A stretch of DNA of 64,000 nt from a virus (taxonomy: Duplodnaviria > Caudoviricetes): the IMG/VR virus record IMGVR_UViG_3300010362_000015, positions 1-64,000 of that record; one strand, given 5' to 3'. The notes beneath the pieces were generated by a model. That model did not search any database, was not told where the DNA came from, and worked only from the letters and a program-made list of their open reading frames with translations. Both the position numbers and the translations under genes were made by a program. This document shows positions 1-13,033 of the stretch, piece after piece (the stretch's first letter is position 1; each line of letters opens with the position of its first letter).

Positions 1-2
1 CT

Positions 3-44
3 GCGGCCACCCCCGGGGAAGTTTCACCCGTACACTTAGGACCC
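3..44 (-). other. Lambda-like cos site (cosQ GGGTCCT plus predicted cosN with 12-nt end GGGGGTGGCCGC)
   Basis: The minus strand reads ACGGGTCCT, 23 nt, then GGGGGTGGCCGC. Lambda has ACGGGTCCT, 23 nt, then GGGCGGCGACCT. The head module is lambda-type and in the same orientation. Confidence 0.55.
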
Positions 45-333
45 GTGGATTTTGAAACCGAACGCGTTCAAAACCGATGGGTATAGACCATACCCCGGGC
101 TATAGGCGTGGTACGTGGTGCGGGCCGCGGGCCGCGTGGTACGGGCCGACGGCGGGCCGCGTGGTGCGTGGTGGTGGTGCGCGCGCGTTGGTACGGGCCG
201 CGTGGTGATAGCGCGTGGTGGGGCCGACGGCGGGCCGCGGGCCGACGGCGGGCCGCGGGCGGGCGGGCGGGCGCCGTTAGTCGCCGACGGGCGGGCCGAC
301 GCCGTGGTGGGGCTCTATTGCGCCGCGCGGGCC

Positions 334-359
334 ATTCTACGAGACGCGATGCATGCATC
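334..359 (-). promoter_or_regulatory. GATGCATGCATC operator with TAGAAT -10 pointing toward cos
   Basis: Perfect palindrome at 348-359; ATTCTA at 334-339; no canonical -35. Confidence 0.5.
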
Positions 360-436
360 TATCGGCTTCGGCTTCGGTGGTGGGCTTCGGTGGGGCCGAC
401 GGCGGGCCGCGTGGTGGGGCTTCGGTGGTGGGGCTG

Positions 437-475
437 AAAACACAACGGGCCCGACGGTATCAACCATCGGGCCCG
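437..475 (-). terminator. Intrinsic terminator after the GP88 gene
   Basis: 13-bp stem CGGGCCCGATGGT/ACCGTCGGGCCCG with one G-U pair, followed by TTGTGTTTT on the minus strand. Confidence 0.7.
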
Positions 476-656
476 CGTTAGTGTGGTGGGGCTCTATTGC
501 GTGGTGCGGGGTAATCCTAGACGCGCACTAGACGCGCGTCGCGGTATCGGGCCGCGGCCCGTGCGCGGGCCTTATCGCGCGCTATGTCCTCAAGCGCGCG
601 CTGCAGCTTGCAGTGTGCTACGAACCGACGGTAAGAACGCAGTATACGGCGGGCCA

Positions 657-1517
657 TTAGAGCACCACCACAAACGGGCCGACGGCGTCGCGGGCCGCGG
701 CGTCAACCGAAGCCATACGGGCCGCAACACGGCGGGCTTCGGAGAGCATATCCGCATGCGTCGGCGTCGGCGGGCCGACGGGCGCCACGGCGGGCGCCGA
801 CGCGCGCACCACAAAGGCCGAATCGGCCCCAATTGCGGCGCCTTTGGCTCGGAGCCCCACCACCACGCCGACGGCGTCGGTAAACCGCAAGTCGTGCAAG
901 TCGCCGTCAACCACGCGGTAACCGCGCCATTCTTCGGGCAGTTCATAACCGCGACGCGTATCAAACACCACGGCGACATTCACGCCGTTAGCAAGGGCGC
1001 CCATAGCGTCGGCGTCGTTATGGCCCGTGTATGAGAACGTCAAGTGATAGTTGGGGAGAACGCGTAATTCGGGCCGCGGAATTTTGGTGTAGTCGTAAAA
1101 CTGGACGTTGGGAAATTCGCGCGCCATAGTGCGCGCAATCTGCGGCAAGTCGCTTGTACCGTTGATGCGCACGGCGGGCTTGAGCCCCAATTTCGCGGCC
1201 CGCTTGATCAAGGCGCCGATATCCCACCGAAGCGCGTTCATGAACGCGTCGCGGTTATTGTGCAAGTACAGTGTCTTTGCCATTCGGCCCGCGCGCACGC
1301 TATCGAACCGACCGCGGCCCGCCGTGAATAGGCAAGCCCGACGACATTCTTCGGTGGCCATAGGGCACGTGTTCATTACCCCGGATTCTTCGGCGGGCGC
1401 CAAATAGAGAATGCCCGTCAAATAGCCTAAGGGCTGGCCCTTAGTTGTCTTTGCGTTCTCAACTGCCAATAAGGGCCGATATCCCGTCGGCTTGCGGTTA
1501 CTACGTGAAGTGTTCAT
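657..1517 (-). CDS. GP88-family phage protein (Cys-motif, radical-SAM-like fold suspected)
   Basis: Motifs LYLAPA..NTCPMATEECRRACLFTAGRG, RINGTSD, QFYDYTK, NYHLTFSY and DGDLHDLRF typical of gene-product-88 proteins. Confidence 0.75.
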   Translation of the reverse strand: MNTSRSNRKPTGYRPLLAVENAKTTKGQPLGYLTGILYLAPAEESGVMNTCPMATEECRRACLFTAGRGRFDSVRAGRMAKTLYLHNNRDAFMNALRWDIGALIKRAAKLGLKPAVRINGTSDLPQIARTMAREFPNVQFYDYTKIPRPELRVLPNYHLTFSYTGHNDADAMGALANGVNVAVVFDTRRGYELPEEWRGYRVVDGDLHDLRFTDAVGVVVGLRAKGAAIGADSAFVVRASAPAVAPVGPPTPTHADMLSEARRVAARMASVDAAARDAVGPFVVVL

Positions 1518-1523
1518 GCATTC

Positions 1524-1579
1524 AGCTTAACGGGCCGATTGCGATGCATGCAACTGATTTCGGAATTTTGTGGGTGAAA
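1524..1579 (-). promoter_or_regulatory. Cassette-type leaderless promoter for GP88
   Basis: TTTCACCCA-N17-TTGCAT (overlapping the operator)-N18-TAAGCT-6 nt-ATG. Confidence 0.7.
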
Positions 1580-1890
1580 TTCGCGGTATCCCCGCTTGAC
1601 TCTCAAGCGCCGACGCGCGCTATCGTGCAAGTAATCGGGCTTCGTTACCATCGGTGGTGCGGGCCCGAAGCGCGGGCCCGTAGTGAAGTGCGGAGCCCGC
1701 GCTATAGCCTATGTCCTAGTCCATGGACTATGGCGATGCTGTAGACACGGGCCGCAAAGCACCTACGTATCAAGCGTGCGTATCAGGGTGAAACGCGATT
1801 CGAGCCTTTTTTCCGGCTGCAATCAAATCCTGGGGAACTTTTTGGGATTTCAAATTTTCCCAGGCAATTTTGGATTCAGGAAAGGAGGGG

Positions 1891-2049
1891 TCACGCTGCG
1901 CCGCGCGCGAGCAGATACGCGATCACCAGAATAGCCAGACCCAGCGATGTCCAGTTGATGGGCTTAACGTTGGGGAACTGGGCCTGCACTGCGCCGACCA
2001 GAAAAAGAAGCATGGCCAGGACCAACAGAATCGTGCCGACGATTGGCAT
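1891..2049 (-). CDS. Small two-TM membrane protein (holin-like candidate)
   Basis: MPIVGTILLVLAMLLFLVG..WTSLGLAILVIAYLL; AGGAGG SD upstream. Confidence 0.6.
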   Translation of the reverse strand: MPIVGTILLVLAMLLFLVGAVQAQFPNVKPINWTSLGLAILVIAYLLARGAA

Positions 2050-2085
2050 ATTGACGGCCTCCTGCTGCGGTCCAGTGTACTCCAC

Positions 2086-2123
2086 AAAAAGCAAAAGCCC
2101 CGGATCGCCGAAGCGGCCCGGGG
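2086..2123 (-). terminator. Intrinsic terminator after the OMP gene
   Basis: GC stem with TTCG loop followed by TTTTGCTTTTT on the minus strand. Confidence 0.7.
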
Positions 2124-2170
2124 CCTGAGTTGTCTACCTAAGAAATTCGATCCAGAAGATTAGATCGATT

Positions 2171-2815
2171 CTACCGCGACTGGAAGAACACGCCGACGGT
2201 CGGCGCGATCACCCAGCCGCCTCCGTTCGAGCCGACCGTGCGCAGCAGAGCGAGCTGCGTATCGACGCCGACCTTGTGAGTGATGTAGGCGCGCACGCCG
2301 CCGCCGGTGATGATGGCCGGTGCGCTGGTAGCGTAGCTGTAGCTGCCGTAGGAGCCGCCGCCGCTCAGAGTGCCGCTCTCGGTTCCGCCTGCATATGCGA
2401 AGCCGAGCTTGCCATACGGTACGAAGCGGGACCGGTTGGTGCCGACGAACTCGAAGCCGCCGCCGAAGGTGTAGAGGTTGGAGTTGACGCTGGCCGAGGC
2501 GCAGTAGCCGTAGTAGCAGGCGCTGGCGCTCTGCCGCATCGGAACCCAGCCGCCCTGCATGAAGACGCCGACGTACTTGCCGAGGCCGACATCGAGCGAT
2601 CCGAGCGCGCCGGGGTGCAGGCCGTTGTTGCCGGTCAGGTGCGCGCCAGCCACTCCGATGGAGCCCGACACGGTGCCGAGGTGGAAGCCGTAGGGCTTGG
2701 CGTCAGCCGCCGGTTGAACAGCGGGCGCAACAGGGCCCGCGGGCGGAACCGCGGCCTGCTGAGCCGAGAGAATCGTTGCGAAGAAAAGAATGATGATGGT
2801 AACTGCCGTTTTCAT
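2171..2815 (-). CDS. Outer-membrane beta-barrel protein (Lom/Ail/OmpA-like moron)
   Basis: Signal peptide, alternating amphipathic Gly/aromatic beta strands (VPYGKLGFAY, GGGVRAY), and an aromatic C-terminal strand (TVGVFF). Confidence 0.75.
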   Translation of the reverse strand: MKTAVTIIILFFATILSAQQAAVPPAGPVAPAVQPAADAKPYGFHLGTVSGSIGVAGAHLTGNNGLHPGALGSLDVGLGKYVGVFMQGGWVPMRQSASACYYGYCASASVNSNLYTFGGGFEFVGTNRSRFVPYGKLGFAYAGGTESGTLSGGGSYGSYSYATSAPAIITGGGVRAYITHKVGVDTQLALLRTVGSNGGGWVIAPTVGVFFQSR

Positions 2816-2911
2816 ACTTGTATGTCCTAAATAGAAAGTTGCGAAGTTAGAGGGTTGAGGTTTAGGCGGCGCGGTTCAGGCGCCGCCGCTTCTGAAACGA
2901 AACTTGTGGTG

Positions 2912-3325
2912 CTAGACTTCTTCCGCGGGCAGGTCGGCGATGCACTCATGCACCAGCCGCAGGAAGATATCGGGCGCGTAGGCCCGCTCGCCGACGCGTT
3001 CTTCGAGATCGCGACCGACGCGCTGGATGGCCTGGACGATCCCGGCAGTCTCGGCGGTCTGCATTAGTTCGCCGCCGCGGACCTCGAAGTCGCGCTCGCC
3101 CTGCCAGCGTGTGGAGTAGGTGTAGACGCCGTACACGATCACCTTGTCCTCGGTGGCGTGGACCTTGCGCAGCACGATCAGCTTCCAGTTGGCGATGCGC
3201 CCGGCGTCATGCTCGTACTGGCCCTGAAACATCTTCTCCCGGGCTTCGGCCACCGAGGTCCACTCGCTGGTCTTGATGCGCACCGGCGGCCTGCCGGTGA
3301 GTGTGATTGTCAGATATTCGTTCAT
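2912..3325 (-). CDS. Hypothetical protein
   Basis: Clean ORF with phage-like composition; no family recognised. Confidence 0.65.
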   Translation of the reverse strand: MNEYLTITLTGRPPVRIKTSEWTSVAEAREKMFQGQYEHDAGRIANWKLIVLRKVHATEDKVIVYGVYTYSTRWQGERDFEVRGGELMQTAETAGIVQAIQRVGRDLEERVGERAYAPDIFLRLVHECIADLPAEEV

Positions 3326-3383
3326 GTTCGTTTTTCCGTCCTTGTGTCCGGTATTCGCCCGCCGGAACGCCGGGGCTTGGTTG

Positions 3384-3716
3384 TTAGTGAGCCTTGCTCT
3401 CTACCGCTACTCTGATGCGGTGGAGACTATCGATCACAGCTTTGAAGCCGAGCATGAGCATTCCCGAAATCATGCCCGAGACTCCACCGATTAAGACTTG
3501 CAGTCCCGTGGCGTCTCGTTCTCCAAGGGCTACGAATCCTAAAACGCAAAACAGTATCCCGAATATGATGGCCATGAATCCGATGAATTGAAGCCAGAAG
3601 CAGATCATCGGGCTTTCGGCGCTCGCGGCGCGCTGCGCGGCTCGATACTCTGCGACAGTGTCTGAGGTGACCGGAGACTGGGGAGTCTCAGGCGAAACGT
3701 TGGTATTGTCAGTCAT
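3384..3716 (-). CDS. Two-TM membrane protein
   Basis: Two hydrophobic segments (ICFWLQFIGFMAIIFGILFCVLG; VLIGGVSGMISGMLMLG). Confidence 0.7.
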   Translation of the reverse strand: MTDNTNVSPETPQSPVTSDTVAEYRAAQRAASAESPMICFWLQFIGFMAIIFGILFCVLGFVALGERDATGLQVLIGGVSGMISGMLMLGFKAVIDSLHRIRVAVESKAH

Positions 3717-3732
3717 GTTTTGATTTCCCTAG

Positions 3733-3996
3733 TTACTTGTCCAATCCGGCGGCCCGGCACTCCAGCCGCTCGACTTTCTTCCACTGCAAATACTTCTCCT
3801 GCTCTTTGGCCTGCAGATATCCCTGCGCCACCAGTTGCGCCTGGACGCATACGGACATCTGATCGCCCGACTGCTTCGATATGCGGTATTGCTGCTCGAA
3901 GTCGGTGGCGACCTTCTGCTCGGGGCCGCCGCTGAACAGCCAGATGAGAAAGGCCCCGGCGATGATCAGCTGAATGAGTGCGGCGAAGACTTTCAC
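3733..3996 (-). CDS. Membrane-anchored periplasmic protein with two Cys
   Basis: N-terminal TM, then QQYRISKQSGDQMSVCVQAQLVAQGYLQAKE..C. Confidence 0.7.
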   Translation of the reverse strand: MKVFAALIQLIIAGAFLIWLFSGGPEQKVATDFEQQYRISKQSGDQMSVCVQAQLVAQGYLQAKEQEKYLQWKKVERLECRAAGLDK

Positions 3997-4355
3997 TTGG
4001 CCCCCTTAGGCGGGTTCTGGGCGGCCTCTCTTGCCAGAACTCGCGCGCCGACCTTGTTCGCCAGCTTCAAGAACTGGACGGCCTTGACGTCGCCGTCCGA
4101 CGTGGCGGGTTGCTCCACGCGCACGCGGATCTTCGGTTCAGCTGGCCCCTTCGCCCATCGGATTGCGGTTGCGGCTGCCTGCGACGTGCAGCTGAGCTTG
4201 AAGCCGAGCCATTGCTCCGGCGATGTGTTGTGTTTGTCGGCGATGCCGTTGTAGTAGCCCAGCTGGCTGATGATGTACTCGCGCACTTCCTGCTCGGTCT
4301 GCTCGGTATCCGCCATGTAGGCCTTGACGGCCTTGGGCGGCAGCTTGCTTTTCAC
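3993..4355 (-). CDS. Hypothetical protein
   Basis: GTG start overlapping the upstream TGA; the ORF-track start at 4499 is likely too long. Confidence 0.6.
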   Translation of the reverse strand: MKSKLPPKAVKAYMADTEQTEQEVREYIISQLGYYNGIADKHNTSPEQWLGFKLSCTSQAAATAIRWAKGPAEPKIRVRVEQPATSDGDVKAVQFLKLANKVGARVLAREAAQNPPKGAK

Positions 4356-4517: not shown

Positions 4518-4718
4518 CTATTGGTTGATCGGTTGCGGTTTAGCGCCGCCCACGCGGCGCGTTTTCTTCTCCTCGACGCAGGCGGTGCAGCTGATCCGTT
4601 TGCCTAAGAACAGCTGCTGCCGGTCGATGGTCACGCAGGGGCACTCGAAGGAGTGCCCGCAGGCGAGCTTGACGCTCCACTTCAGCCCGAAGCGAAGCAT
4701 GCGGGTAATCTCGGTCAC
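4518..4718 (-). CDS. Small Cys-rich hypothetical protein
   Basis: LACGH..C.C and CTAC motifs. Confidence 0.55.
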   Translation of the reverse strand: MTEITRMLRFGLKWSVKLACGHSFECPCVTIDRQQLFLGKRISCTACVEEKKTRRVGGAKPQPINQ

Positions 4719-4864
4719 TACGAGGCCTCGCCGAACGCGATAGCGTAGATGAACTTGAACATCTCGATCCCGGCCCAGATGAACAGCACCAGCTCGAACA
4801 GCAGCGGCTTGGTGATGTGCAGCGCGTGAGAGATGCCTTGAATCACTTCAGTGAATTTGGTCAT
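4718..4864 (-). CDS. Small membrane protein (48 aa)
   Basis: MTKFTEVIQGISHALHITKPLLFELVLFIWAGIEMFKFIYAIAFGEAS; AAGGA SD; follows a cassette promoter. Confidence 0.55.
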   Translation of the reverse strand: MTKFTEVIQGISHALHITKPLLFELVLFIWAGIEMFKFIYAIAFGEAS

Positions 4865-4892
4865 TTTGTATTTTCGTTTCCTTTATGATTCA

Positions 4893-4936
4893 AGCATCTC
4901 ATCACTTGCATGCATGAAGTCAAGAGATTTCACCCC
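4893..4936 (-). promoter_or_regulatory. Cassette promoter with inverted upstream element
   Basis: GGGGTGAAA-N4-TTGACT-TCATGCATGCAA; the -10 is uncertain. Confidence 0.55.
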
Positions 4937-5166
4937 TGCGTTCTCTTGACGTCGGTGGCGATGAACTCCTGCCCGGCGCTGTTGGCCAGCCGCCCGTTGG
5001 GCAGCTTGCACAGCGTCACGCGGCAGCGAAACATCGGGTTGGGCGCCGCATTGTCGATGGCCACGCCCGCCTCGGACTCCTCGATGACGTAGAACCGCAG
5101 CGGCTGCTGGGATACTACCCCGTCGGTCACGGCGCGCAGATCAATTGCCCGTGGGCCTCGCTTCAT
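4930..5166 (-). CDS. Hypothetical protein
   Basis: ATGA-coupled to the upstream gene; its stop lies inside GGGGTGAAA. Confidence 0.6.
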   Translation of the reverse strand: MKRGPRAIDLRAVTDGVVSQQPLRFYVIEESEAGVAIDNAAPNPMFRCRVTLCKLPNGRLANSAGQEFIATDVKRTQG

Positions 5167-5414
5167 GCGGCCTCCTCCTTCGCAGCGTTCTCTTTCGCGC
5201 GCCGGTCCATGCACTTGTGGCAGCGGCAGCCCGGCCATTTGGGTTTATGCTTGGCCCAGTAGATCCCGCCGGTGTACGACTTGCGCTTCTTCGCATTGCG
5301 GCGGGCCCACTCGCTCTTGAGCGCATCCTCGGGGATGGTGCCCAGGTCCCAGTTTTCGTTGTACGGGCGCAGCTTCACCGCGCCTTCGTCTTGTTTGGTC
5401 ATAGATTCTCCCAT
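5163..5414 (-). CDS. Hypothetical basic protein with CxCxxC
   Basis: ATG 6 nt after the -10; GCRCHKC motif. Confidence 0.6.
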   Translation of the reverse strand: MGESMTKQDEGAVKLRPYNENWDLGTIPEDALKSEWARRNAKKRKSYTGGIYWAKHKPKWPGCRCHKCMDRRAKENAAKEEAA

Positions 5415-5420
5415 ACCTTC

Positions 5421-5465
5421 AGTGTCACAGATACATGTAACTCAGTGCAAGAGGCGTTTCACCCC
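5421..5465 (-). promoter_or_regulatory. Cassette promoter with inverted upstream element
   Basis: GGGGTGAAA-N6-TTGCAC-18 nt containing TTACATGTATC-GACACT-6 nt-ATG. Confidence 0.65.
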
Positions 5466-5467
5466 TC

Positions 5468-5773
5468 CTATTTCAGCTCCATGCGGTTCTGCTTCATGGA
5501 CGCGAGCAGCACCTTGGACGGCGACCAGCCGGTGCCGTGGACATCCACCCCGAACCGGCGGCGGGCGGCGTCGCGGAACTCTGCAACGGTCTGGCCTTCC
5601 CGCATCAGATCGAACACCCGGCCCCGCATTCCGCCCATGTGGCCCGGCGCGGCCAGCAGGTGAATCCGCATCGTGTCGCGGATCTTACGGTGCATTTTCC
5701 GGTGGGCGCTTACCCAGCACTCGTCCATGCGAGTCGTCTTCTTCGTCACCGTATTCTTCGGCCTCTTCTTCAT
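5468..5773 (-). CDS. Hypothetical basic protein
   Basis: MKKRPKNTV start with AGGGAGA SD. Confidence 0.55.
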   Translation of the reverse strand: MKKRPKNTVTKKTTRMDECWVSAHRKMHRKIRDTMRIHLLAAPGHMGGMRGRVFDLMREGQTVAEFRDAARRRFGVDVHGTGWSPSKVLLASMKQNRMELK

Positions 5774-5800
5774 TGCGAATTGTCTCCCTAGATACATGGT

Positions 5801-5826
5801 AAAAGGAGGCGGGCGTTTCACCCGCC
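5801..5826 (-). terminator. Intrinsic terminator after the Zn-finger/OB gene
   Basis: GGCGGG-TGAAACG-CCCGCC followed by TCCTTTT; the loop contains the GGTGAAA element. Confidence 0.55.
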
Positions 5827-5853
5827 ACACATTTCACCCCATGGGGAGGCCCT

Positions 5854-6780
5854 CTAGGCCTCCGGCGTCTTCGGCTTGCGGGCCGTCTTGGCGGGCGCGG
5901 GCGCGTATTCCTTCGCGCCGCCGATCTCGCTGTCCCAGACGTACAGCTTGCCGTCGTCCTCGCGGTACGCCAGCACCTTGGGGCGGGCGATGATCGTCTG
6001 GTTCTCGTCCTTGTAGCTCTCGTGGCCGTCCACCGTCGCCTTCACCAGGACCGTGACGCCAGCGCTGGCGATGTGGCTGCCGCCCTTGTAGACCAGCCGG
6101 TTGCCGTTGTCGTCGCGGAGCAGGTAGATGCTGCGCGGGCCGAAGCAGTAGTGGCGCGTGCCCGAGCAGCCGCAGGGGATCGGGATGATCCGCTCGACGG
6201 TCACGATCACCTCGATGCGCTTGCCGACCTCGGCGACGAACTGGCTGGCGGCGCGCTCGGCGGCCCGGGCTTCCAGGCGGGCGATGGTGTTGCGGGCGGC
6301 CTCGACCTGCTTCTCGCTGAGCTTGCCCGCCTGCTCGAACTTGCGGAGCAGGTCGGCCAGGAACGTGTCGGCGGCCTCGTGCTTGCGCATGCCCTCGACC
6401 ACGTCGCCGTAGGCGGCCAGTGAGTCGGCCTTCACGGCTTCGGCGGCGGCGGCCTCAGCGGCCTGAGCGGCGGCCAGCTTGGCGGCCTGGACGGCGTTGC
6501 GCTTGGCCTGGGCGGCGTTCAGGGCGGCCAGCTTCTCGGCGGTGTAGACCGGCTCGGTGCGGATCGGGCCCTTACCGTTGCCGCGGCAGTCGAAGCAGAC
6601 GCGGCCCGTGAACATCCACTTGTCCGACGCGCCAGCGCCGCCGCAGCGCGAGCAGACATCCTGGTAGGTGTGCTTGGCGGTGCCCTTGGCCTCGTTGGCG
6701 TCGAAGATCCCGCGGGTGACCGGCGAACCGTAGCGGTTGAACCAGCTGCTCTTCGCGTCGCTCATGATTACGTTTTCCAT
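5854..6780 (-). CDS. DnaJ-type Zn finger, coiled coil and C-terminal OB-fold-like protein
   Basis: CSRCGGAG..CFDCRGNG, an Ala-rich coil, then VGKRIEVIVTVER..LLRDDNGNRLVYKG..VKATVDGH..QTIIARP. Confidence 0.7.
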   Translation of the reverse strand: MENVIMSDAKSSWFNRYGSPVTRGIFDANEAKGTAKHTYQDVCSRCGGAGASDKWMFTGRVCFDCRGNGKGPIRTEPVYTAEKLAALNAAQAKRNAVQAAKLAAAQAAEAAAAEAVKADSLAAYGDVVEGMRKHEAADTFLADLLRKFEQAGKLSEKQVEAARNTIARLEARAAERAASQFVAEVGKRIEVIVTVERIIPIPCGCSGTRHYCFGPRSIYLLRDDNGNRLVYKGGSHIASAGVTVLVKATVDGHESYKDENQTIIARPKVLAYREDDGKLYVWDSEIGGAKEYAPAPAKTARKPKTPEA

Positions 6781-6786
6781 GTCCTA

Positions 6787-6831
6787 AGTATGACAAGTTG
6801 CATGCATCTGGTCAACGGGTTTGGGGTGAAA
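6787..6831 (-). promoter_or_regulatory. Cassette promoter
   Basis: TTTCACCCC-N7-TTGACC-17 nt (GATGCATGCAAC)-CATACT-6 nt-ATG. Confidence 0.85.
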
Positions 6832-7045
6832 CCTTCGGCGGCTTGACCACTTCCGGCCCCATCTCGGTGATGACCCGCCGGATCACCTGATAGGCGCTGC
6901 CGCGGAATTCCTTCGACAGCCGCACGGCGTCGGCGCGGGCCTCGCGTTCGCTGGCCCGCCGCTCGCCCTCGTACCACTCCAGCATCTTGCCGTTTTCGTC
7001 CCGGCCACAAACCCGCACGGCCTCATACCATGTGTGCGTCGTCAT
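6812..7045 (-). CDS. Cassette hypothetical protein
   Basis: Ends VSPQTR at the TGA of the next -35 box. Confidence 0.65.
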   Translation of the reverse strand: MTTHTWYEAVRVCGRDENGKMLEWYEGERRASEREARADAVRLSKEFRGSAYQVIRRVITEMGPEVVKPPKVSPQTR

Positions 7046-7398
7046 GCCGCCTCCGGCTCGGGCTCGCGGATTGCGCCGACGGCGTCCGCGGCGCGGTTGA
7101 AGGTGCTGGGCCGCACGCCGTTCTCCCAGGCGTCCCTGATCGGCTTGGCGGGATTCTTCATGCAGGCCGGGCAGCCGTGGCCCCCGATGGTCAGCATCGA
7201 GCCGTCGGCGAAGTCGAAGCGGATCGACATCGGCGTGGAGAGGAAGGACGAGCGCACGGCGTGGAACTCGCCGCAGCCGTGGCAGACCAGAACGTGATCG
7301 TAGGCGTTGAAAGTCCTACCGTCGTCTTCGATCTGGACGAGCCGCTGCTTCAATGCGCTGATCGCGCTCTTTGCTTGGGTGACTGCTGTGTTGTTCAT
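7042..7398 (-). CDS. Cassette hypothetical protein with two CxxC motifs
   Basis: Starts MNNTAV at the promoter-adjacent ATG; CHGC and CPAC. Confidence 0.7.
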   Translation of the reverse strand: MNNTAVTQAKSAISALKQRLVQIEDDGRTFNAYDHVLVCHGCGEFHAVRSSFLSTPMSIRFDFADGSMLTIGGHGCPACMKNPAKPIRDAWENGVRPSTFNRAADAVGAIREPEPEAA

Positions 7399-7404
7399 GA
7401 GTCC

Positions 7405-7449
7405 ATTCTCTCGCGATGCATGCATCTGGTCAAGTACGTTGGGGTGAAA
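7405..7449 (-). promoter_or_regulatory. Cassette promoter
   Basis: TTTCACCCC-N7-TTGACC-17 nt (GATGCATGCATC)-GAGAAT-6 nt-ATG. Confidence 0.85.
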
Positions 7450-7675
7450 TGCGCACGCGCCCGCCGGGCCCGATGTCCTCGGCAGAGGCGCTGGGGGCGC
7501 CCTTGCGTTTGAGCAGGTCCCAGACCTTGTCACGCAGGCCGTTGTAGACCTCGGTGCAGTCCTCGGTCCAGTCGGCGTAGTCGCCCTCGCCCCAAGGGGC
7601 TGCCGCCGCGATAGCGCACATGTCGTTGATGAGCGCCAGCTCAGCGGCGGTGAAGGCGATACGCTTAGTCGGCAT
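7430..7675 (-). CDS. Cassette hypothetical protein
   Basis: MPTKRIAF start; ends ISPQRT at the -35 TGA. Confidence 0.6.
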   Translation of the reverse strand: MPTKRIAFTAAELALINDMCAIAAAAPWGEGDYADWTEDCTEVYNGLRDKVWDLLKRKGAPSASAEDIGPGGRVRISPQRT

Positions 7676-7925
7676 AGGCCTCGTAGTAGCCCAGCTCATG
7701 GAGCTTGTCGCAGGCCGCGGCGCAGGCATGGTAGACCTCGTCGCAAGCCTCGCAGTACAGCTCGTCCTCGTTGCCGGAGGAGATCACGTCCTCGCCGTGC
7801 AGGCCCGCGGGGCACTTGACGCCGAGGAGCAGCTCGGAGGCCTCCAGCAGGCCGTTGAGGAGGTCCTGCCGGTTGTCCAGCAGGGCCTCGATGGTCTTGG
7901 TGTTGATGAATTTGCTGATGTCCAT
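7665..7925 (-). CDS. Cassette hypothetical Cys-rich protein
   Basis: AAGGA SD; C..H..YCEAC motif. Confidence 0.65.
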   Translation of the reverse strand: MDISKFINTKTIEALLDNRQDLLNGLLEASELLLGVKCPAGLHGEDVISSGNEDELYCEACDEVYHACAAACDKLHELGYYEAYAD

Positions 7926-7935
7926 GGTCGTTTCC

Positions 7936-8319
7936 TTAGTCGTAGTAGCCGCAGGCGTAGTCGTAACCGGCGCTGTAGGTGCGGTCCTGCCAGGGATCGA
8001 CGCCCAGCTGGCAATGCATGCAGGTCATGCGCCCGTCGGCCTCCTGGCCGTAGGCGGCGCTGCCGCAGCGCGGGCAATTCTCGGCCTGCCGCTCGGCGGC
8101 GAGCAGTTCCGCGGCCCGCCGCTCGATGGTCTGGAGCCGGATGCCGATTGCGTGGTGGATGTCGCACAGCGCGTTGGCGATCTCGGTATCGTGGACCTCC
8201 TGATGGTTCAGCGTGGCGATCATGCGGATCGAGGCGGAAGCCCGGCGCGTGGGGTTCATGGTGTTCCGGCTGTAGCCCGACGCGGCCAGCTTCTGGATGT
8301 TGAGAAGTGCGTTGTTCAT
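7936..8319 (-). CDS. Cassette Zn-ribbon protein
   Basis: MNNALL start; CPRC..CMHC motif. Confidence 0.7.
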   Translation of the reverse strand: MNNALLNIQKLAASGYSRNTMNPTRRASASIRMIATLNHQEVHDTEIANALCDIHHAIGIRLQTIERRAAELLAAERQAENCPRCGSAAYGQEADGRMTCMHCQLGVDPWQDRTYSAGYDYACGYYD

Positions 8320-8325
8320 GTCCTT

Positions 8326-8371
8326 AGTATGCCGCACATGCATGCATCTGGTCAACTGGCTTGGGGTGAAA
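8326..8371 (-). promoter_or_regulatory. Cassette promoter
   Basis: TTTCACCCC-N7-TTGACC-18 nt (GATGCATGCATG)-CATACT-6 nt-ATG. Confidence 0.85.
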
Positions 8372-8375
8372 CCGT

Positions 8376-8687
8376 TCAGGCGTCTAAGCGCGCCGGGCAA
8401 CTGTCCAGCCGGGCATGCCGCTCACGATAGTAGTCGGGCTTCAGATAGAAGTCGCGGCCAGCCTCGGCGCACAGGCAGTCGCGGCCCTCGGGGTCCATGG
8501 CCAGCGCGTCGGCAGTGATCATCGAGGTCGGGTCGCCGGGCACGCGAATCTTGATGGCGACGTGGTCGCCGAGGATATACGGGTAGCTGATGAATTCCCA
8601 GAAGTCGCCGTTGAGGTCTTTGGCGAGCCGGTGCGGCTTGTGCGTATTTTTCAGGGCGAGCGTTGCGAGCTTTAGATCCAGGTCCAT
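8376..8687 (-). CDS. Cassette hypothetical protein
   Basis: Abuts the upstream stop codon; no family recognised. Confidence 0.65.
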   Translation of the reverse strand: MDLDLKLATLALKNTHKPHRLAKDLNGDFWEFISYPYILGDHVAIKIRVPGDPTSMITADALAMDPEGRDCLCAEAGRDFYLKPDYYRERHARLDSCPARLDA

Positions 8688-8888
8688 CTACTTGCCCTCC
8701 TGCGCCGCGATGTACTGCTTTACCACTCGTCGCGCCTCTTCCATCAAGGCGTCCTCGGGGCATTTCCGCTTGTGGTCGCAATTGGCGAGGTGCGACGCCA
8801 CTAGGTAGTAGAGGACCGCGGCGGTAATCCGCGCCTCCTCGTTGGCCAGGACCTCATCGGCCCTTTCCTTCCAGACGTTCGTCGCCAT
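8688..8888 (-). CDS. Cassette hypothetical protein
   Basis: AGGAGG SD with TAATG coupling. Confidence 0.65.
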   Translation of the reverse strand: MATNVWKERADEVLANEEARITAAVLYYLVASHLANCDHKRKCPEDALMEEARRVVKQYIAAQEGK

Positions 8889-9127
8889 TAGCGGCCTCCT
8901 TTCGCGGCCCGCACTTGGTCGGCGATGTCGCCGGTCGGGGCGATGAACCATACGCCGTGGAACGGCTCGAAGGTGTTGAGCATCGTGGCGCGGCGCCGGG
9001 CGCCCTCGATGGTCTGGTAGCCGAAGGCCTCCGCGGCGTTCGGCGAAACGAAGCCCGCGCCAGCGCGGCCCGTGTAGTAAAGCGTCGCGCCGCTCTTGGT
9101 GCGACCGACGATGGGGAAGAAGTTCAT
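8888..9127 (-). CDS. Cassette hypothetical protein
   Basis: ATG 6 nt after the -10. Confidence 0.7.
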   Translation of the reverse strand: MNFFPIVGRTKSGATLYYTGRAGAGFVSPNAAEAFGYQTIEGARRRATMLNTFEPFHGVWFIAPTGDIADQVRAAKGGR

Positions 9128-9133
9128 GTCTCT

Positions 9134-9179
9134 AGTTTGCCTCGGATGCATGCATCTTGTCAAGTAGTTTGGGGTGAAA
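9134..9179 (-). promoter_or_regulatory. Cassette promoter
   Basis: TTTCACCCC-N7-TTGACA-18 nt (GATGCATGCATC)-CAAACT-6 nt-ATG. Confidence 0.85.
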
Positions 9180-9207
9180 TGGGCCGCCGCGGCGGCCCGG
9201 GCGCAGT

Positions 9208-9579
9208 TCAGCCTGCCCTCTTTTTCACCAGGAACGCGGGCTTCTCGCCGCGGGCCATGCGGTCGGCGGCGGAACGCTTGGCCGACTTGCTGCGGTTTTT
9301 GGAGGTCAGCGATTCCCGTTGCCGGGCGATAGCTTCGGCCACCTGGGGCGGGATCGCGATGCGGATCGCGCCCTCGGCCCCGATGGTTTCGAGAAAGATC
9401 GTGTCGCCCTTGTCCGTCTGCCGGTAGGTCTGCACGATGTAGCTGCGCGCGATGCCGATCAGGGGCATCATGGCGCGGATGGTGGACGGCTTCGACTTGA
9501 CTACGTCGGGCAGCCCTTCGAGCGCCCCGACCAGCCGGTCGAATTCGCTCACAGTGGTAATTGCGTTGTCGTTGCTCAT
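9208..9579 (-). CDS. Cassette hypothetical protein with basic C-terminus
   Basis: GAGG SD; clean ORF. Confidence 0.7.
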   Translation of the reverse strand: MSNDNAITTVSEFDRLVGALEGLPDVVKSKPSTIRAMMPLIGIARSYIVQTYRQTDKGDTIFLETIGAEGAIRIAIPPQVAEAIARQRESLTSKNRSKSAKRSAADRMARGEKPAFLVKKRAG

Positions 9580-9597
9580 TGGTTTACCTCAAACTCG

Positions 9598-9789
9598 TTA
9601 TCGCGGGCCCCGCTTCCTGGCTTCGCGCTCGCGCTTGCGCTCGATCAGCTCGTCGTAGGCCTTTGCCGAGGCCTCCAGCCGCGGCAGGCCCGCGGCCTCC
9701 AGTTCGGCCATGCGGGCCGCATGCCACGCCAGGGCATTCCGCGCGTAGCGCTCGCGCGTCTTGTAGTCGCGGTTGCTGCCGAGGGCCAT
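9598..9789 (-). CDS. Cassette hypothetical protein
   Basis: TAATG coupling. Confidence 0.6.
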   Translation of the reverse strand: MALGSNRDYKTRERYARNALAWHAARMAELEAAGLPRLEASAKAYDELIERKREREARKRGPR

Positions 9790-10097
9790 TAGCGCACCTC
9801 CACGCCGCGCACGAGCGAGGTATAGGAGTTGACGTCCTCGGGCCGCACCGGCTCGACGGTGGCGCGCATGTCGGCGACGCCGGGCCGCGCGGCGATCCAG
9901 CGTTCGGCGCCCGCGCGCGTCTTCCAGTACTTGACCTGCGAGACTTCGTTCTCGGTGTACCAGACGCCGTCCCAGGTGCCCGCGCCGTCGTTCTTCGCGA
10001 CCCAGGCGTTGCGCTCGAACTCGGGGCCGTACTGCCGGGCGATGATCACGCGGATTCGGTAGACCGGCTTGGTTTCGATTACTGCTGTGTTGTTCAT
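9789..10097 (-). CDS. Cassette hypothetical protein
   Basis: Starts MNNTAV, with the first 17 nt identical to the 7398 gene. Confidence 0.7.
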   Translation of the reverse strand: MNNTAVIETKPVYRIRVIIARQYGPEFERNAWVAKNDGAGTWDGVWYTENEVSQVKYWKTRAGAERWIAARPGVADMRATVEPVRPEDVNSYTSLVRGVEVR

Positions 10098-10104
10098 ATT
10101 TCCT

Positions 10105-10149
10105 ATTCTGCCTGATGCATGCATCTGCGTCAAGAGGCTTGGGGTGAAT
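10105..10149 (-). promoter_or_regulatory. Cassette promoter
   Basis: TTCACCCC-N7-TTGACG-17 nt (GATGCATGCATC)-CAGAAT-7 nt-ATG. Confidence 0.85.
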
Positions 10150-10357
10150 TCTTCCAGGCCCAATCGCGCAGCCGGTCGGCGGCGTCGTTGCGGCGCTCGC
10201 CTTCGAGTTGCAGCAGCGTGCTCTCGCCGGGCCGGTTGGGATGCACCAGGACGTCGGCGACGGCGAGCGGCAGATTCTTGCCGCGGTAGCCGAGCGCCCG
10301 CGCGCCGCGGCGCAGGTGCTGGTCGGTGATGTCGCGCTCGGGCCGGGGCCGCCTCAT
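10130..10357 (-). CDS. Cassette hypothetical protein
   Basis: Ends NSPQAS at the -35 TGA. Confidence 0.55.
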   Translation of the reverse strand: MRRPRPERDITDQHLRRGARALGYRGKNLPLAVADVLVHPNRPGESTLLQLEGERRNDAADRLRDWAWKNSPQAS

Positions 10358-10614
10358 ACGTGGGCCGCCACGGCGTCAGCCAGCCTCTTCAGGCCGTCGA
10401 GCACGGTCGCGAGATGCTCCAGCCGCTCGGCGTGCTGGTTGGTCGCCTGGATGAAAGCGCCGGGGCCCTGCGGGTAGTAGTCCCGCGCGTTGGGGCCGTT
10501 CTCGGCGAGTACGCTGATCGCCTCGCGCACGGCGTTCATCGATTTGATGTAGCCGTCCAGCAGGTCACTGGCGGCGGTGCCGTTCAGGTGGATCGAGGGG
10601 GTAATGAGTGCCAT
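10354..10614 (-). CDS. Cassette hypothetical protein
   Basis: PSIHLNGT..PNARDYYPQG..QH.ERL motif, a recurrent small phage ORF type. Confidence 0.7.
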   Translation of the reverse strand: MALITPSIHLNGTAASDLLDGYIKSMNAVREAISVLAENGPNARDYYPQGPGAFIQATNQHAERLEHLATVLDGLKRLADAVAAHV

Positions 10615-10616
10615 GG

Positions 10617-10808
10617 TTAGTTGCCTTTCTCGGCCAGCTCCTCGAAGAGCCGGTCCAGTTCATCGTTCTGACGACGCCGGATGATCCGCTTGGTCGCCCG
10701 CCCGCAGCAGCCGCATTCCCATACCGGGCGCCCTTCGGCGTCCACGGTCGCAGTGTGCCGGGTCTGGCATCCGCAAGCTCCGTTGCACTGGCGTTTCGTC
10801 GTCTTCAT
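10617..10808 (-). CDS. Cassette Zn-finger mini-protein
   Basis: CNGAC..CGCC motif; ATG 7 nt after the -10. Confidence 0.65.
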   Translation of the reverse strand: MKTTKRQCNGACGCQTRHTATVDAEGRPVWECGCCGRATKRIIRRRQNDELDRLFEELAEKGN

Positions 10809-10815
10809 ACTTCCT

Positions 10816-10861
10816 ATTGTGCCGGATGCATGCATCTGCCGTCAACGGGTATGGGGTGAAA
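10816..10861 (-). promoter_or_regulatory. Cassette promoter
   Basis: TTTCACCCC-N7-TTGACG-18 nt (GATGCATGCATC)-CACAAT-7 nt-ATG. Confidence 0.85.
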
Positions 10862-11126
10862 CGCGCTCGCGCCTCGCAAAATACTGCTTGATCATCTCGT
10901 CCTCCGACCGCTCGCGCTCCAGCTCGTTCCAGACCTCGCGCAGCAGGCGCCCGATGCTGCGGCCATAGGGCAGCAGGTCGATGCGGTCCAGCTCGGCCAC
11001 GAGGTCGGGGTCGTCAATGCAGCCCATGACGCCGAGGGCCGAGGCCTTGAAGGCCTCCCAAGTCGTCGGGCCGTTCTTGCGCGCGACCACCATCAGGCGG
11101 AACTTGATGCGCTGGCGGGCGGTCAT
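10842..11126 (-). CDS. Cassette hypothetical protein
   Basis: Ends VSPHTR at the -35 TGA. Confidence 0.65.
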   Translation of the reverse strand: MTARQRIKFRLMVVARKNGPTTWEAFKASALGVMGCIDDPDLVAELDRIDLLPYGRSIGRLLREVWNELERERSEDEMIKQYFARRERVSPHTR

Positions 11127-11127
11127 G

Positions 11128-11319
11128 TTAGCTCACCCTTCCCATCAGCTTCAGGGCCCAGCGGGCGGCCAGCCGTGCGCAGCGACCGGCCTCAGCCGGG
11201 TTGTTGTCGCGAACGTGAAACTCGACCGCGTGGCCCCAGGCGGCAGCCTCGCCGCGGGCGTACTGCGTGTACTCCCGGTCCAGCATGTCTTTGCGCTCGG
11301 ATTTGATCAGCTTCTTCAT
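11128..11319 (-). CDS. Cassette hypothetical protein
   Basis: ATG 7 nt after the -10. Confidence 0.65.
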   Translation of the reverse strand: MKKLIKSERKDMLDREYTQYARGEAAAWGHAVEFHVRDNNPAEAGRCARLAARWALKLMGRVS

Positions 11320-11326
11320 ACTCACT

Positions 11327-11371
11327 ATCCTACCGGATGCATGCATCTGAGTCAATTGGTTTCAGGTGAAA
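11327..11371 (-). promoter_or_regulatory. Cassette promoter
   Basis: TTTCACCTG-N7-TTGACT-17 nt (GATGCATGCATC)-TAGGAT-7 nt-ATG. Confidence 0.85.
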
Positions 11372-11588
11372 TCTTTGCGAGCGCCGCCAGGGCCTCGGTC
11401 TTGGTCTTGAAGCGTCCATACTCGGGGGCCTCGACCCAGCCGCGCACCGGCGAGATCGGATCTTCGGGCCGCACGAGCGACGAGTCCCAGCGGGCGATGC
11501 CCCAGCTGGCTGCGGTGCGCCGCGCGTAGCTGCGCTGGGAGTGGAAGGCCGTGAGGCGGCGGCTGCCGTAGTTGCGGACGGAGAGCAT
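11352..11588 (-). CDS. Cassette hypothetical protein
   Basis: TAATG coupling; ends ISPETN at the -35 TGA. Confidence 0.65.
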   Translation of the reverse strand: MLSVRNYGSRRLTAFHSQRSYARRTAASWGIARWDSSLVRPEDPISPVRGWVEAPEYGRFKTKTEALAALAKISPETN

Positions 11589-11824
11589 TAGCGCACCTCC
11601 GCGGGCGTCATCCAGGCCCGCCGGGTAGCTACGCTCTTCAGCATCTGGCGCACGGTCGAGGCGCTGTGGATGTGGCGGCTGCCGGTGGGATATTCGAGCG
11701 TGACCAGAGAGCCGCCGGTGACCACGGTCGCGACCTCGAAGGCCTCAGTGTTGCGGTTCCAGTATTCAATCTTCATACCGGCCTCGAACTTCCGCGTGTG
11801 CTGAGTGACTGCTTTGTTCATCAT
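11588..11824 (-). CDS. Cassette hypothetical protein (SH3-like beta fold possible)
   Basis: MMNKAVTQ start resembling MNNTAVTQ. Confidence 0.65.
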   Translation of the reverse strand: MMNKAVTQHTRKFEAGMKIEYWNRNTEAFEVATVVTGGSLVTLEYPTGSRHIHSASTVRQMLKSVATRRAWMTPAEVR

Positions 11825-11831
11825 GTCTCTA

Positions 11832-11877
11832 ATCTTATCTGATGCATGCATCTGGAGTCAACGAGCAATGGGTGAAA
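11832..11877 (-). promoter_or_regulatory. Cassette promoter
   Basis: TTTCACCCA-N7-TTGACT-18 nt (GATGCATGCATC)-TAAGAT-7 nt-ATG. Confidence 0.85.
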
Positions 11878-12127
11878 CGCGCCGGGCCTCGCGGCGTTCC
11901 TGCTCCGCGGCCAGCACCTCCTCCTGCCCGTAGATCAGAGCCAGGATGGTGATGCGGCGCTTGTAGTAGAGGCCGAGCCAGCCCTGCGCGGCGACCTTGC
12001 CGTTGCGGTCGTAGAGCCAGCCGCCGTTCATACCGTTGGCGCTGATCTCGACCTTCGCTGCGTACCACTTGGCGAGGCGCACGCGCGCCTCGCTCCAGGG
12101 ATCTTGCCAGCACTTGGGAGTCTTCAC
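11858..12127 (-). CDS. Cassette hypothetical protein
   Basis: Ends VSPIAR at the -35 TGA. Confidence 0.65.
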   Translation of the reverse strand: MKTPKCWQDPWSEARVRLAKWYAAKVEISANGMNGGWLYDRNGKVAAQGWLGLYYKRRITILALIYGQEEVLAAEQERREARRVSPIAR

Positions 12128-12411
12128 TTACTTATCCTCCTTTGCACGCGGTAGCGGGCGACGATCTCGGCCCGGCGGGCGTGATCCTTCAGGGCGTCGG
12201 CCTCAGTGAGGTAGTAAACCCGGCGGCCCCTGGAGTCCTTATCCGGCCCCAGTTCGGCGAACATCCGGGTGCAGTGCAGGCAGCGCCATACCTTGTCATG
12301 CGTGACGCCGATCTCGGTCCCGGTCTTCAGGGCCGTCTTGCATTGCGGGCACTGTGAGTCAAACTTTGCCTTGATGGTTCGGATCTCGGCGGGCTTCATT
12401 GTCGTTTCCAT
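12124..12411 (-). CDS. Cassette Zn-finger protein
   Basis: AKFDSQCPQCK..WRCLHC motif. Confidence 0.7.
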   Translation of the reverse strand: METTMKPAEIRTIKAKFDSQCPQCKTALKTGTEIGVTHDKVWRCLHCTRMFAELGPDKDSRGRRVYYLTEADALKDHARRAEIVARYRVQRRISK

Positions 12412-12417
12412 GTTCTT

Positions 12418-12462
12418 AGTTTGCCAGATGCATGCATCTCACGCAAGGGGGAAGGGGTGAAA
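12418..12462 (-). promoter_or_regulatory. Cassette promoter
   Basis: TTTCACCCC-N7-TTGCGT-17 nt (GATGCATGCATC)-CAAACT-6 nt-ATG; an upstream GGGGTGA forms an inverted repeat with the element. Confidence 0.85.
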
Positions 12463-12465
12463 TGC

Positions 12466-12702
12466 TCACCCCTGTGTCAGCCGCATGTGGCGCCGCGTCA
12501 GCCGCGGATGCCGCCGGAGCCGGTGGCCCTGGCTCATGTTGGTCAGCTGCTCGGCGACGCATGCGACGCGGAACCGCATGGGCGTGTGATGCGCCGCGGT
12601 GGCGTCCAGGGCCGCCGACATCGGCGAGCGCCCGTCGGTTTCGTCGCGGGCGGCCCGGCGCGCAGCGCCCCAGGCCAGATGGAATAATTCTCGTGTCGTC
12701 AT
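12466..12702 (-). CDS. Cassette hypothetical protein
   Basis: AAAGAA SD-like sequence; MTTRELF start. Confidence 0.55.
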   Translation of the reverse strand: MTTRELFHLAWGAARRAARDETDGRSPMSAALDATAAHHTPMRFRVACVAEQLTNMSQGHRLRRHPRLTRRHMRLTQG

Positions 12703-12716
12703 GTTCGTTCTTTCCT

Positions 12717-12980
12717 TTACCCTTTGAGGGCCGCCTCCGCGGCGGCCCGGTTGGTGCGCTTCCACTGCCCGTTCTGCATGAGGTAGAAGGTCGCGCGGAA
12801 GTGTTCCCGCTTGGGCATCGTGCGTGCGGTCACCGGAACCACATAAGCCTGGACGACGCCGTTGTCGGCGCTGCCTCTCTTCCAGCAAGCCTGAAACGTG
12901 CTGCCGTCTTCCCGGGTAACGGTGCGGATCTCCAGGGCCTTCGCGATTGCCGCGTCGATCAGTTGTTCTAACGTGTTCAT
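12717..12980 (-). CDS. Cassette hypothetical protein
   Basis: ATG 6 nt after the -10. Confidence 0.7.
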   Translation of the reverse strand: MNTLEQLIDAAIAKALEIRTVTREDGSTFQACWKRGSADNGVVQAYVVPVTARTMPKREHFRATFYLMQNGQWKRTNRAAAEAALKG

Positions 12981-12986
12981 GACTTA

Positions 12987-13031: not shown

Positions 13032-13033
13032 TG

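Follow-up and report, generated by a model that had tools for sequence, protein, structure and literature searches.

A compositionally foreign GP88 module beside the cohesive end of a soil siphophage probably explains most of a local loss of restriction-type sites, with avoidance of CCGG added to it

The virus record IMGVR_UViG_3300010362_000015 (Duplodnaviria; Caudoviricetes) is 73,592 bp long and is rated complete by CheckV; the window analyzed here is its first 64 kb (64,000 nucleotides). Our subject is the outermost 1.8 kb of this window, in which four short restriction-type motifs (GATC, TCGA, CCGG, and CCWGG) are nearly absent, and in which a single gene of the GP88 family lies between a cohesive end (cos) and the rest of the phage. 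An earlier sequence-only reading of this stretch took it for a first-injected leading segment, selected to evade host restriction or methylation sensing until an early protein protects the remaining DNA. As we argue below, part of this reading holds, in that the terminus is a true end, the depleted zone recurs in relatives, and CCGG appears to be avoided beyond what composition predicts, whereas the loss of the other three motifs is largely compositional. The features of the region, in window coordinates, are as follows:

1 to 11, no strand: cos sequence CTGCGGCCACC, with an identical 11-mer at genome positions 73581-73591
12 to 110, no strand: cos-proximal flank; it contains A/T tracts and the motif GTTTCACCC (reverse complement GGGTGAAAC), and a small hairpin lies at 79-95
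110 to 656 (approximately 550 bp), plus strand: non-coding array of short strand-polar G-rich repeats, with 18 copies of CGGGCCG against approximately 1 expected and 8 of GTGGTGG against 0.1
445 to 476, minus strand: intrinsic terminator hairpin downstream of GP88, in which 10 of the 14 pairs are G-C, and which has a T-rich tail
657 to 1517, minus strand: GP88-family gene (PF17338), a 286-aa open reading frame (ORF) whose homologues span residues 9-238
1518 to 1800, no strand: 283 bp of intergenic DNA on the upstream side of GP88, with none of the four motifs; the GP88 promoter presumably lies here
1800 to 1890, no strand: patch of phased A/T tracts that bounds the depleted zone on its inner side; sites resume here
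2097 to 2114, minus strand: terminator-like hairpin closing the upstream operon, from a hairpin scan

Given the terminators at 445-476 and 2097-2114, the GP88 unit is bracketed on both sides. Rfam and tRNA scans of the module returned nothing credible.

By exact count, positions 1-1799 contain one GATC (at 1206), one TCGA (at 1303), three CCGG (at 13, 95, and 1381), and no CCWGG, reproducing every number and position of the earlier hand count; the comparison interval that had been chosen, 6001-7000, likewise holds exactly 6 GATC, 8 TCGA, 6 CCGG, and 6 CCWGG. At rest-of-genome rates one would expect approximately 13 GATC, 13 TCGA, 17 CCGG, and 5 CCWGG in 1-1800, and the corresponding Poisson probabilities are 2-4e-5 for each of GATC, TCGA, and CCGG. 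The four motifs together occur 6 times in the first 1.8 kb, compared with a median of 48 per 1.8-kb window over the genome and a minimum of 20 elsewhere, and the longest gap without any of them in the genome is 95-1206 (1,111 bp; the runner-up measures 460 bp). Sites return abruptly beside the A/T-tract patch, as had been described, with TCGA at 1800, CCGG at 1813, and CCWGG at 1829 and 1860, GATC following only at 1921. Also borne out is the abundance of GGCC, CGCG, and GCGC in the depleted segment (38, 52, and 37 occurrences). The site anomaly is real, and its edges are sharp. The remainder of the phage shows no avoidance (675 CCGG, 528 GATC, and 516 TCGA).

Position 1 is a true cohesive end, as the sequence-only reading had supposed in treating it as a physical terminus. 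The cos 11-mer is present at both ends of the record, its far-end copy being followed by one additional A (genome 73581-73592) that may be an A-tailing trace of the physical end, and independent contigs terminate at the same site: L007/L141 and L121 (related loci are cited by L numbers throughout) start precisely at GGTGGCCGCAG, the reverse complement of the 11-mer; L140 starts one nucleotide further in; and L015/L136 start with the variant GGTGGACCCAG. In ten other contigs the 11-mer is internal, and a small-terminase gene lies 340-600 nt downstream of it. This 11-nt cos is common to a clade of uncultivated soil phages, and we infer that it is a filled-in 5' overhang of the lambda kind. Nearly all genes of the phage lie on the minus strand, and those identified include portal, protease, major capsid, tape-measure, serine integrase, and both terminase genes. 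The large terminase is of the gpA type (lambda family; genome 70784-72901; PF05876, 3.3e-62; PF20454, 1.5e-60) and is followed by the small-terminase gene. Gene layout and terminase location therefore make position 1 the conventional right end. In lambda, the right cos end is packaged last and ejected first. Given a gpA-type terminase and the distance of its genes from the end considered here, comparison with lambda is reasonable, and by this analogy the end would likewise be last into the capsid and first out of it.

A search with the large terminase recovered a clade of uncultivated phages at 65-78% identity, together with one contig of a Terracidiphilus (Acidobacteriaceae) metagenome-assembled genome (MAG). 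The cos junction is assembled in four relatives (L005, L006, L011, and L014), which with this genome make up the five loci compared below. In all four, a GP88-family gene and a short-repeat array lie within approximately 2.5 kb of cos on the side opposite the small terminase, and the depleted zone recurs at this same site; in L006, for example, a 2.48-kb interval (5979-8457) holds 7 four-motif sites where approximately 64 are predicted from its flanks. The CCGG-poorest 2-kb windows of the five loci all start 1.9-2.7 kb from cos, again opposite the small terminase, and the terminal 2-kb counts of CCGG are 3, 1, 4, 3, and 3 against medians of 16, 17, 12, 20, and 21. The non-coding arrays and intergenic parts of the modules are likewise without CCGG. 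In four of the five loci (this genome, L005, L006, and L011) a CCGG does stand no more than 6 nt from the cos 11-mer, in a variable register. No cos, GP88, or depleted zone was found in L009 within 3.1 kb upstream of its small-terminase gene, and neither near nor distant matches to 1-4000 or 1-2200 turned up when the phage collection was searched at the DNA level.

The oligonucleotide make-up of the segment as a whole is itself unusual. No other part of the genome reaches so high a dinucleotide distance (delta* 228, against a genome-wide median of 66); the segment is short of AG/CT and GA/TC steps and has a surplus of TA, CG, and GC. Purine-purine and pyrimidine-pyrimidine neighbors (RR/YY steps) make up 0.39-0.42 of all steps in window 1-1400, the lowest share in the genome, and in the relatives' modules, against 0.475±0.027 genome-wide; such steps fall below the flanks in all five modules (this genome, L005, L006, L011, and L014), and alternating purine-pyrimidine steps are correspondingly high. 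The lowest tetranucleotides are not the palindromic ones: CGAG/CTCG occurs 2 times against 24.7 expected, CAGG/CCTG 1 against 21, CCAG/CTGG 2 against 23, and CAGC/GCTG 6 against 29.5, while GATC, TCGA, and CCGG rank merely 9th to 11th among the depleted tetranucleotides of this genome's segment. The codons preferred by the GP88 gene (GAA, TTG, and TTT) also set it apart from the genome, with GAA at 91% versus 33% of Glu, and TTG at 42% versus 10% and CTG at 8% versus 51% of Leu. Since non-palindromes are the most depleted words and the codon usage of GP88 is foreign, most of the apparent purge is best seen as a by-product of a distinct exchanged module.

Shuffles of 1-1800 that preserve di- and trinucleotides yield 4.0-4.6 GATC, 4.6-5.1 TCGA, approximately 21 CCGG, and 0.9-2.7 CCWGG; under this correction CCWGG is not depleted, and CCGG (3 against approximately 21, P<0.002) is the sole motif clearly depleted. 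The intergenic stretch at 1518-1800 has 0 four-motif sites against 4.2-4.8 in shuffles (P 0.004-0.01). The depletion had also been said to hold inside the GP88 coding sequence, and a synonymous-codon shuffle of this gene divides that claim: GATC (1 observed, 1.8 expected), TCGA (1 and 1.9), and CCWGG (0 and 0.2) are near expectation, and CCGG remains low, with 1 observed and 6.8 expected (6.8-9.5 for the coding region alone). Applied to four clade GP88 genes, the same shuffle gives 11 GATC against 10.1, 12 TCGA against 14.1, 2 CCWGG against 4.5, and 4 CCGG against 17.3 (P<0.001); the very divergent GP88 of L011 has 0 CCGG against 3.7 (P 0.005), so that the five clade genes together hold 4 CCGG against 21. 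This null is calibrated by 21 GP88 genes from other phages, in which CCGG is found 77 times with 86 expected. Measured against genome rates, the words most consistently depleted in four modules are CCGG (10 versus 87), GATC (17 versus 62), CATC/GATG, and TCGA (19 versus 58), with CCGG, GATC, and TCGA taking ranks 1, 2, and 4 of 136 words. A local maximal-order Markov model moves GATC to rank 37 of 136 (17 versus 23.8) and TCGA to rank 19 (19 versus 29.1), and it keeps CCGG at rank 1 (10 versus 47.7, z -5.5). The sequence-only reading had allowed that composition and codon correction might dissolve the depletion. For CCGG the depletion survives both; for GATC, TCGA, and CCWGG it is largely lost, and their scarcity is largely a compositional by-product rather than site-specific purging.

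Comparison across genomes suggests that this class of module is exchanged horizontally. GP88 identity among the relatives is 52-61% (approximately 22% for L011), compared with 70-78% for the large terminase. The gene points toward cos here and in L006 and away from it in L005 (7433-8110), L011 (7416-8144), and L014 (2200-2868); the module has been inverted or replaced in the history of the clade. The nearest GP88 with DNA sequence available (70%) is found in L002, an integrative element of approximately 11 kb (4600-15500) on the Bryobacteraceae MAG contig JBAUMQ010000265.1, and besides GP88 the element encodes a tyrosine integrase, a primase-like protein (DUF3987), and a TOPRIM protein, and contains a repeat array and an A/T patch. 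It has a small-terminase homologue (53% identical) but no large terminase, and looks like a phage satellite borrowing this clade's packaging end. CCGG is normal in its GP88 (3 against 3.7 expected), and its repeat array is full of CCGG. Over 57 loci (L002-L105) the GC content of the GP88 gene is approximately 0.5, in surrounding genomes that range from 0.30 to 0.68, which suggests either frequent transfer or a strong composition constraint on the family. The four motifs are mildly low across these 57 loci (observed/expected 0.77), and the GP88 genes of L027-L029, the nearest in other viral contigs, are mildly CCGG-poor (5 against 10 expected).

Several parts of the module have recognizable counterparts elsewhere. 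The flank at 12-110 aligns to the cos flank of L012 (z 3.5) and is similar to that of L005; the A/T patch at 1800-1890 resembles L006:8380-8470 (z 4.7, 1/300 shuffles) and L002:7060-7140. This patch ends in GGAGGG(G)T, and it abuts cos in L006 but marks the module's inner edge here. An inverted pseudo-cos flanking the module was considered and rejected: the end compared with the 1800-1900 patch gave z 1.2, the end compared with the region upstream of GP88 in L006 gave z 2.6, and there is no flanking inverted repeat. Arrays of short strand-biased repeats lie beside GP88 at 110-656 of the window and at L006:7680-8160, L011:7000-7360, and L002:6740-6860, with units that differ per genome. Relative to cos, their C-rich strand is oriented alike in three of the five loci regardless of gene orientation; the polarity is weak in L005 and reversed in L014. 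Within the present array, the run GGGCGGGCGGGCGGGC at 258-273 has the form of a G-quadruplex motif. Matches of a 19-mer from the array to three viral contigs proved to be chance matches to unrelated sequences, and a Chi-like role for GTGGTGG or GGGCCG was discarded, since the G-rich strand has its 5' end at this terminus and, judged by the orientation of known G-rich Chi sites, faces the wrong way for an exonuclease entering here. A palindrome with an operator-like look, CAGATGCTAGCATCTG, stands upstream of the small-terminase operon in L009 (2690-2720) and beside GP88 in L002 (5690-5720).

The protein encoded by the module matches PF17338 over profile positions 2-229 of 230 (E 1.9e-43; 149 bits against a gathering cut-off of 24.4) and PHROG 1617 (E 2.3e-72). 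The literature searched holds no functional data on PF17338, GP88, or DUF5131. In the family alignment three cysteines are invariant (C51, C58, and C62, spaced C-x6-C-x3-C), directly after the first strand. Using a structure model with a predicted local distance difference test (pLDDT) score of 86, we found that the top 12 structural matches (VIA-align) were all radical S-adenosylmethionine (SAM) enzymes, at Z values of only 5.6-6.8 (6.8 and 6.3 for QueE). Foldseek with the same model returned nothing at E<=0.001, the radical-SAM models of Pfam and NCBIfam did not match, and the spacing of the cysteines departs from the CX3CX2C cluster motif of radical-SAM enzymes. Judging from the model, GP88 looks like a radical-SAM-like fold. 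The early protein that had been envisaged as protecting the rest of the genome is hard to recognize in it, as GP88 would resemble an Fe-S enzyme of radical-SAM type and not a known anti-restriction protein. In L135 the place beside cos usually taken by GP88 is occupied by a 246-aa Cys-rich protein (173-913, minus strand) with no Pfam match.

With regard to the presumed host, the phage core compares closely with the Terracidiphilus MAG, whose signature was taken from a 61-kb sample (TA 0.65 versus 0.53; TCGA observed/expected 1.27 versus 1.26; CTAG 0.38 versus 0.29); the core therefore looks host-adapted, and the terminal module does not. The MAG sample shows no avoidance of GATC, TCGA, or CCGG (observed/expected 1.08 for CCGG). 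Among 151 genomes of the presumed host family, RE_HpaII was matched in 0, NgoMIV in 3, and Bse634I in 0, control genomes likewise giving no match for the last. Against the idea of a restriction or methylation target in the host, the presumed host lineage does not avoid the sites, and enzymes of the HpaII, Bse634I, and NgoMIV types were rare or not found in those 151 genomes. In the phage itself, searches for methyltransferases of PF00145, PF01555, and PF02086 found none. Searched against Pfam, 40 non-structural ORFs gave only a few matches of helix-turn-helix, AraC, and LuxR types, and the early region (window 2000-34000) is almost entirely without recognizable families. A 2,706-aa ORF on the minus strand, running from window 61141-64000 on to genome 69261, combines collagen triple-helix repeats with tail-spike-like parts; its 3' portion (61-65 kb), with a GC content of 0.55 and unusually high CTAG and TATA, is the genome's second compositional outlier.

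We consider it probable that 1-1800 is a moron-like exchanged module whose foreign composition explains most of the site loss, and that a genuine, end-linked avoidance of CCGG comes in addition. On this account, a lambda-like temperate siphophage of soil Acidobacteriota would carry a self-contained accessory module set against its cohesive end, on the side remote from the terminase genes; accessory modules are already known from the right ends of lambdoid phages. The module's oligonucleotide make-up, unlike that of the phage core and presumed host, would itself remove most GATC, TCGA, and CCWGG, and a site-specific avoidance of CCGG, tied to this end across GP88 lineages and orientations, would be added on top. 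Because the CCGG deficit persists across those lineages and orientations, we read it as the mark of continuing selection at this position.

A number of observations weigh against this account. GATC and TCGA retain an approximately fourfold depletion after shuffling of the present segment, at a borderline P of 0.01-0.06, so that some residual site-specific selection on them may exist, and a Markov correction is capable of absorbing real signal. The GP88 tree scatters the five clade members but is no proof of exchange, the intervening metagenomic proteins being of unknown genomic context. For five more relatives, short pieces of the right end have a higher AT content, with motifs only approximately threefold down, a difference that GC alone could explain; the right end of L135 shows no CCGG avoidance, and neither does the GP88 of L005 (2 against 2.7 expected). 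Since the GP88 module is present in every relative with an assembled junction, it is not a sporadic moron, and position is inseparable from gene content. Finally, a sigma-70 consensus scan of 1-2300 found no promoter for GP88, although acidobacterial promoters may differ.

The explanations that compete for the pattern, or for the CCGG component of it, differ mainly in where they place selection. That a first-injected 1.8 kb has been purged of all four motifs until an early protein protects the rest is, we think, quite improbable, even though it would fit the location at a true cos end remote from the genes of the gpA-type terminase, the sharp edges and the recurrence in relatives (7 against approximately 64 in L006), the ranks of 1, 2, and 4 of 136 at genome rates, the single gene bracketed by terminators, and the situation in cluster A mycobacteriophages, where GP88 is the second gene of a leftward block starting at the right end. 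Codon and Markov correction leaves only one of the four motifs significant, and non-palindromes are depleted more; with no avoidance in the rest of the phage, the proposal needs delayed entry or very fast protection. Ejection in lambda-like cos siphophages is normally uninterrupted. Nor does it sit well with the failure to find the three methyltransferase families in the phage, the lack of avoidance in the presumed host lineage, the predicted likeness of GP88 to an Fe-S radical-SAM-type enzyme rather than a known anti-restriction protein, the cluster A phage Phontbonne (which has a right-end GP88 but no depletion), or the transcription of GP88 toward the end here and in L006, by which its promoter would enter last. 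Evasion of a CCGG-recognizing host nuclease by last-packaged, first-ejected DNA is our leading candidate for the cause of the CCGG deficit, and a tentative one; in this narrower form, the first-entering 2 kb would be under selection against CCGG and the other depletions would be compositional. The deficit survives all corrections, forms a unique CCGG minimum in five loci that always abuts cos opposite the terminase genes, holds for GP88 genes down to 22% identity in both orientations, and is missing from the 21 other GP88 genes and from the satellite-like L002. What tells against it is that no CCGG enzyme was identified (HpaII 0/151, Bse634I 0/151, NgoMIV 3/151) in a host lineage whose CCGG is at 1.08 of expectation, that sparing 2.4% of 675 sites brings a benefit only where protection reaches the remaining DNA in time, and that the L005 gene and the L135 right end show no avoidance. 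We doubt the bolder version, in which the last-packaged 2 kb is a miniature first-step-transfer segment, CCGG-free as the host cuts there, that expresses a defense-disarming GP88; GP88 would then disarm the defense or protect the remaining DNA before its arrival, and the polar repeat array would help pause or protect the entering DNA.

Other explanations dispense with host nucleases altogether. A pure donor signature, in which the module was imported from word-poor elements, CCGG included, and no selection acts at the position, would account for the foreign codon usage and dinucleotide signature, for the compositional foreignness of GP88 in most genomes, for its far greater divergence than that of the terminase among relatives, and for the mildly CCGG-poor genes of L027-L029 (5 against 10). 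We regard it as rather unlikely: very different clade GP88 genes are all without CCGG, yet the nearest homologue, in L002 (70%), is CCGG-normal and its array CCGG-full; at 52-61% protein identity synonymous sites are saturated, so an inherited deficit should have decayed; and non-coding arrays and intergenic parts are CCGG-free as well. Alternatively, the last 2 kb may be shaped in cis for packaging termination, cos cleavage, or DNA mechanics, for example by repeats that slow the terminase, by alternating purine-pyrimidine DNA suited to the tightly curved last-packaged layers, or by avoidance of cos-like CCGG contexts. Here one can point to the repeat array beside cos in every relative, with its C-rich-strand polarity shared in three of five whatever the gene orientation, to the scarcity of RR/YY steps in all five modules, to the CCGG within 6 nt of cos in this genome, L005, L006, and L011, and to the satellite-like element bearing the same module. 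Such a constraint nevertheless strikes us as distinctly unlikely, because the cos-adjacent CCGG has no fixed register, the arrays of L005 and L014 have a weak and an opposite polarity, respectively, and coding sequence is affected as strongly as non-coding; moreover, we know of no terminase requirement that reaches 2 kb from cos. Chance, or a low-complexity repeat artifact, is hardly credible. The array at 110-656 does have a restricted vocabulary that inflates the Markov expectation for CCGG, but the coding region alone has 1 CCGG against 6.8-9.5, the 283-bp intergenic stretch has 0 four-motif sites against 4.2-4.8, and the pattern recurs in four further loci.

Whatever the cause, most of a conspicuous gap in restriction sites can arise as a by-product of foreign composition, and the present analysis shows the controls that reveal it. 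The residual CCGG deficit within 2 kb of cos would be a rare genomic trace of position-dependent selection along a phage chromosome.

At the level of the protein, GP88 would be like radical-SAM enzymes in its predicted partial beta/alpha barrel, which best fits QueE, EpeE, viperin, and PFL-activating enzyme (Z 6.0-6.8, a range that may reflect shared arrangement only), and in the placement of its three invariant cysteines after the first strand, where the cluster loop sits; it is unlike them in spacing these residues as C-x6-C-x3-C rather than CX3CX2C. The location of the gene, too, has parallels among PF17338 members: gene 88 of cluster A mycobacteriophages, second in a leftward block that begins at the right cos end, is approximately 1.4 kb away from that end, and other homologues lie near the genome starts of pelagiphages and HMO-2011-type podophages. 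Unlike the present module, the right end of Phontbonne has no motif depletion, and CCGG is at expectation in the 21 other GP88 genes. If the interpretation as first-entering DNA were true, it would give a testable early-infection role to a widespread family found near genome ends in mycobacteriophages and marine podophages.

Morons and accessory loci reportedly lie at the cos-proximal right end of lambdoid phages. The present module resembles lambdoid morons in being a single extra gene between terminators, with deviant nucleotide and codon composition and apparent horizontal exchange, and in standing beside cos at the end of the late (right) arm of a temperate cos siphophage. It differs from them in being present in every relative with an assembled junction, in traveling with a 0.5-kb polar repeat array, in its site-specific CCGG deficit beyond composition, and in having no promoter that the sigma-70 scan could find. 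The other comparison is with the leading DNA of T5 and T7: the first-step-transfer DNA of T5 is said to lack EcoRI sites, and the leading end of T7 and T3 carries gene 0.3 (Ocr or SAMase). Here the differences are that only CCGG behaves as a purged site after correction and that the phage is a lambda-like cos siphophage. The likeness is that a restriction-type site common in the rest of the genome is missing from a short segment at the end presumed to enter first, and that this segment carries one early-looking gene with repeat or palindrome elements; if this is indeed first-entering DNA, it would extend the principle known from T5 and T7 to lambda-like siphophages.

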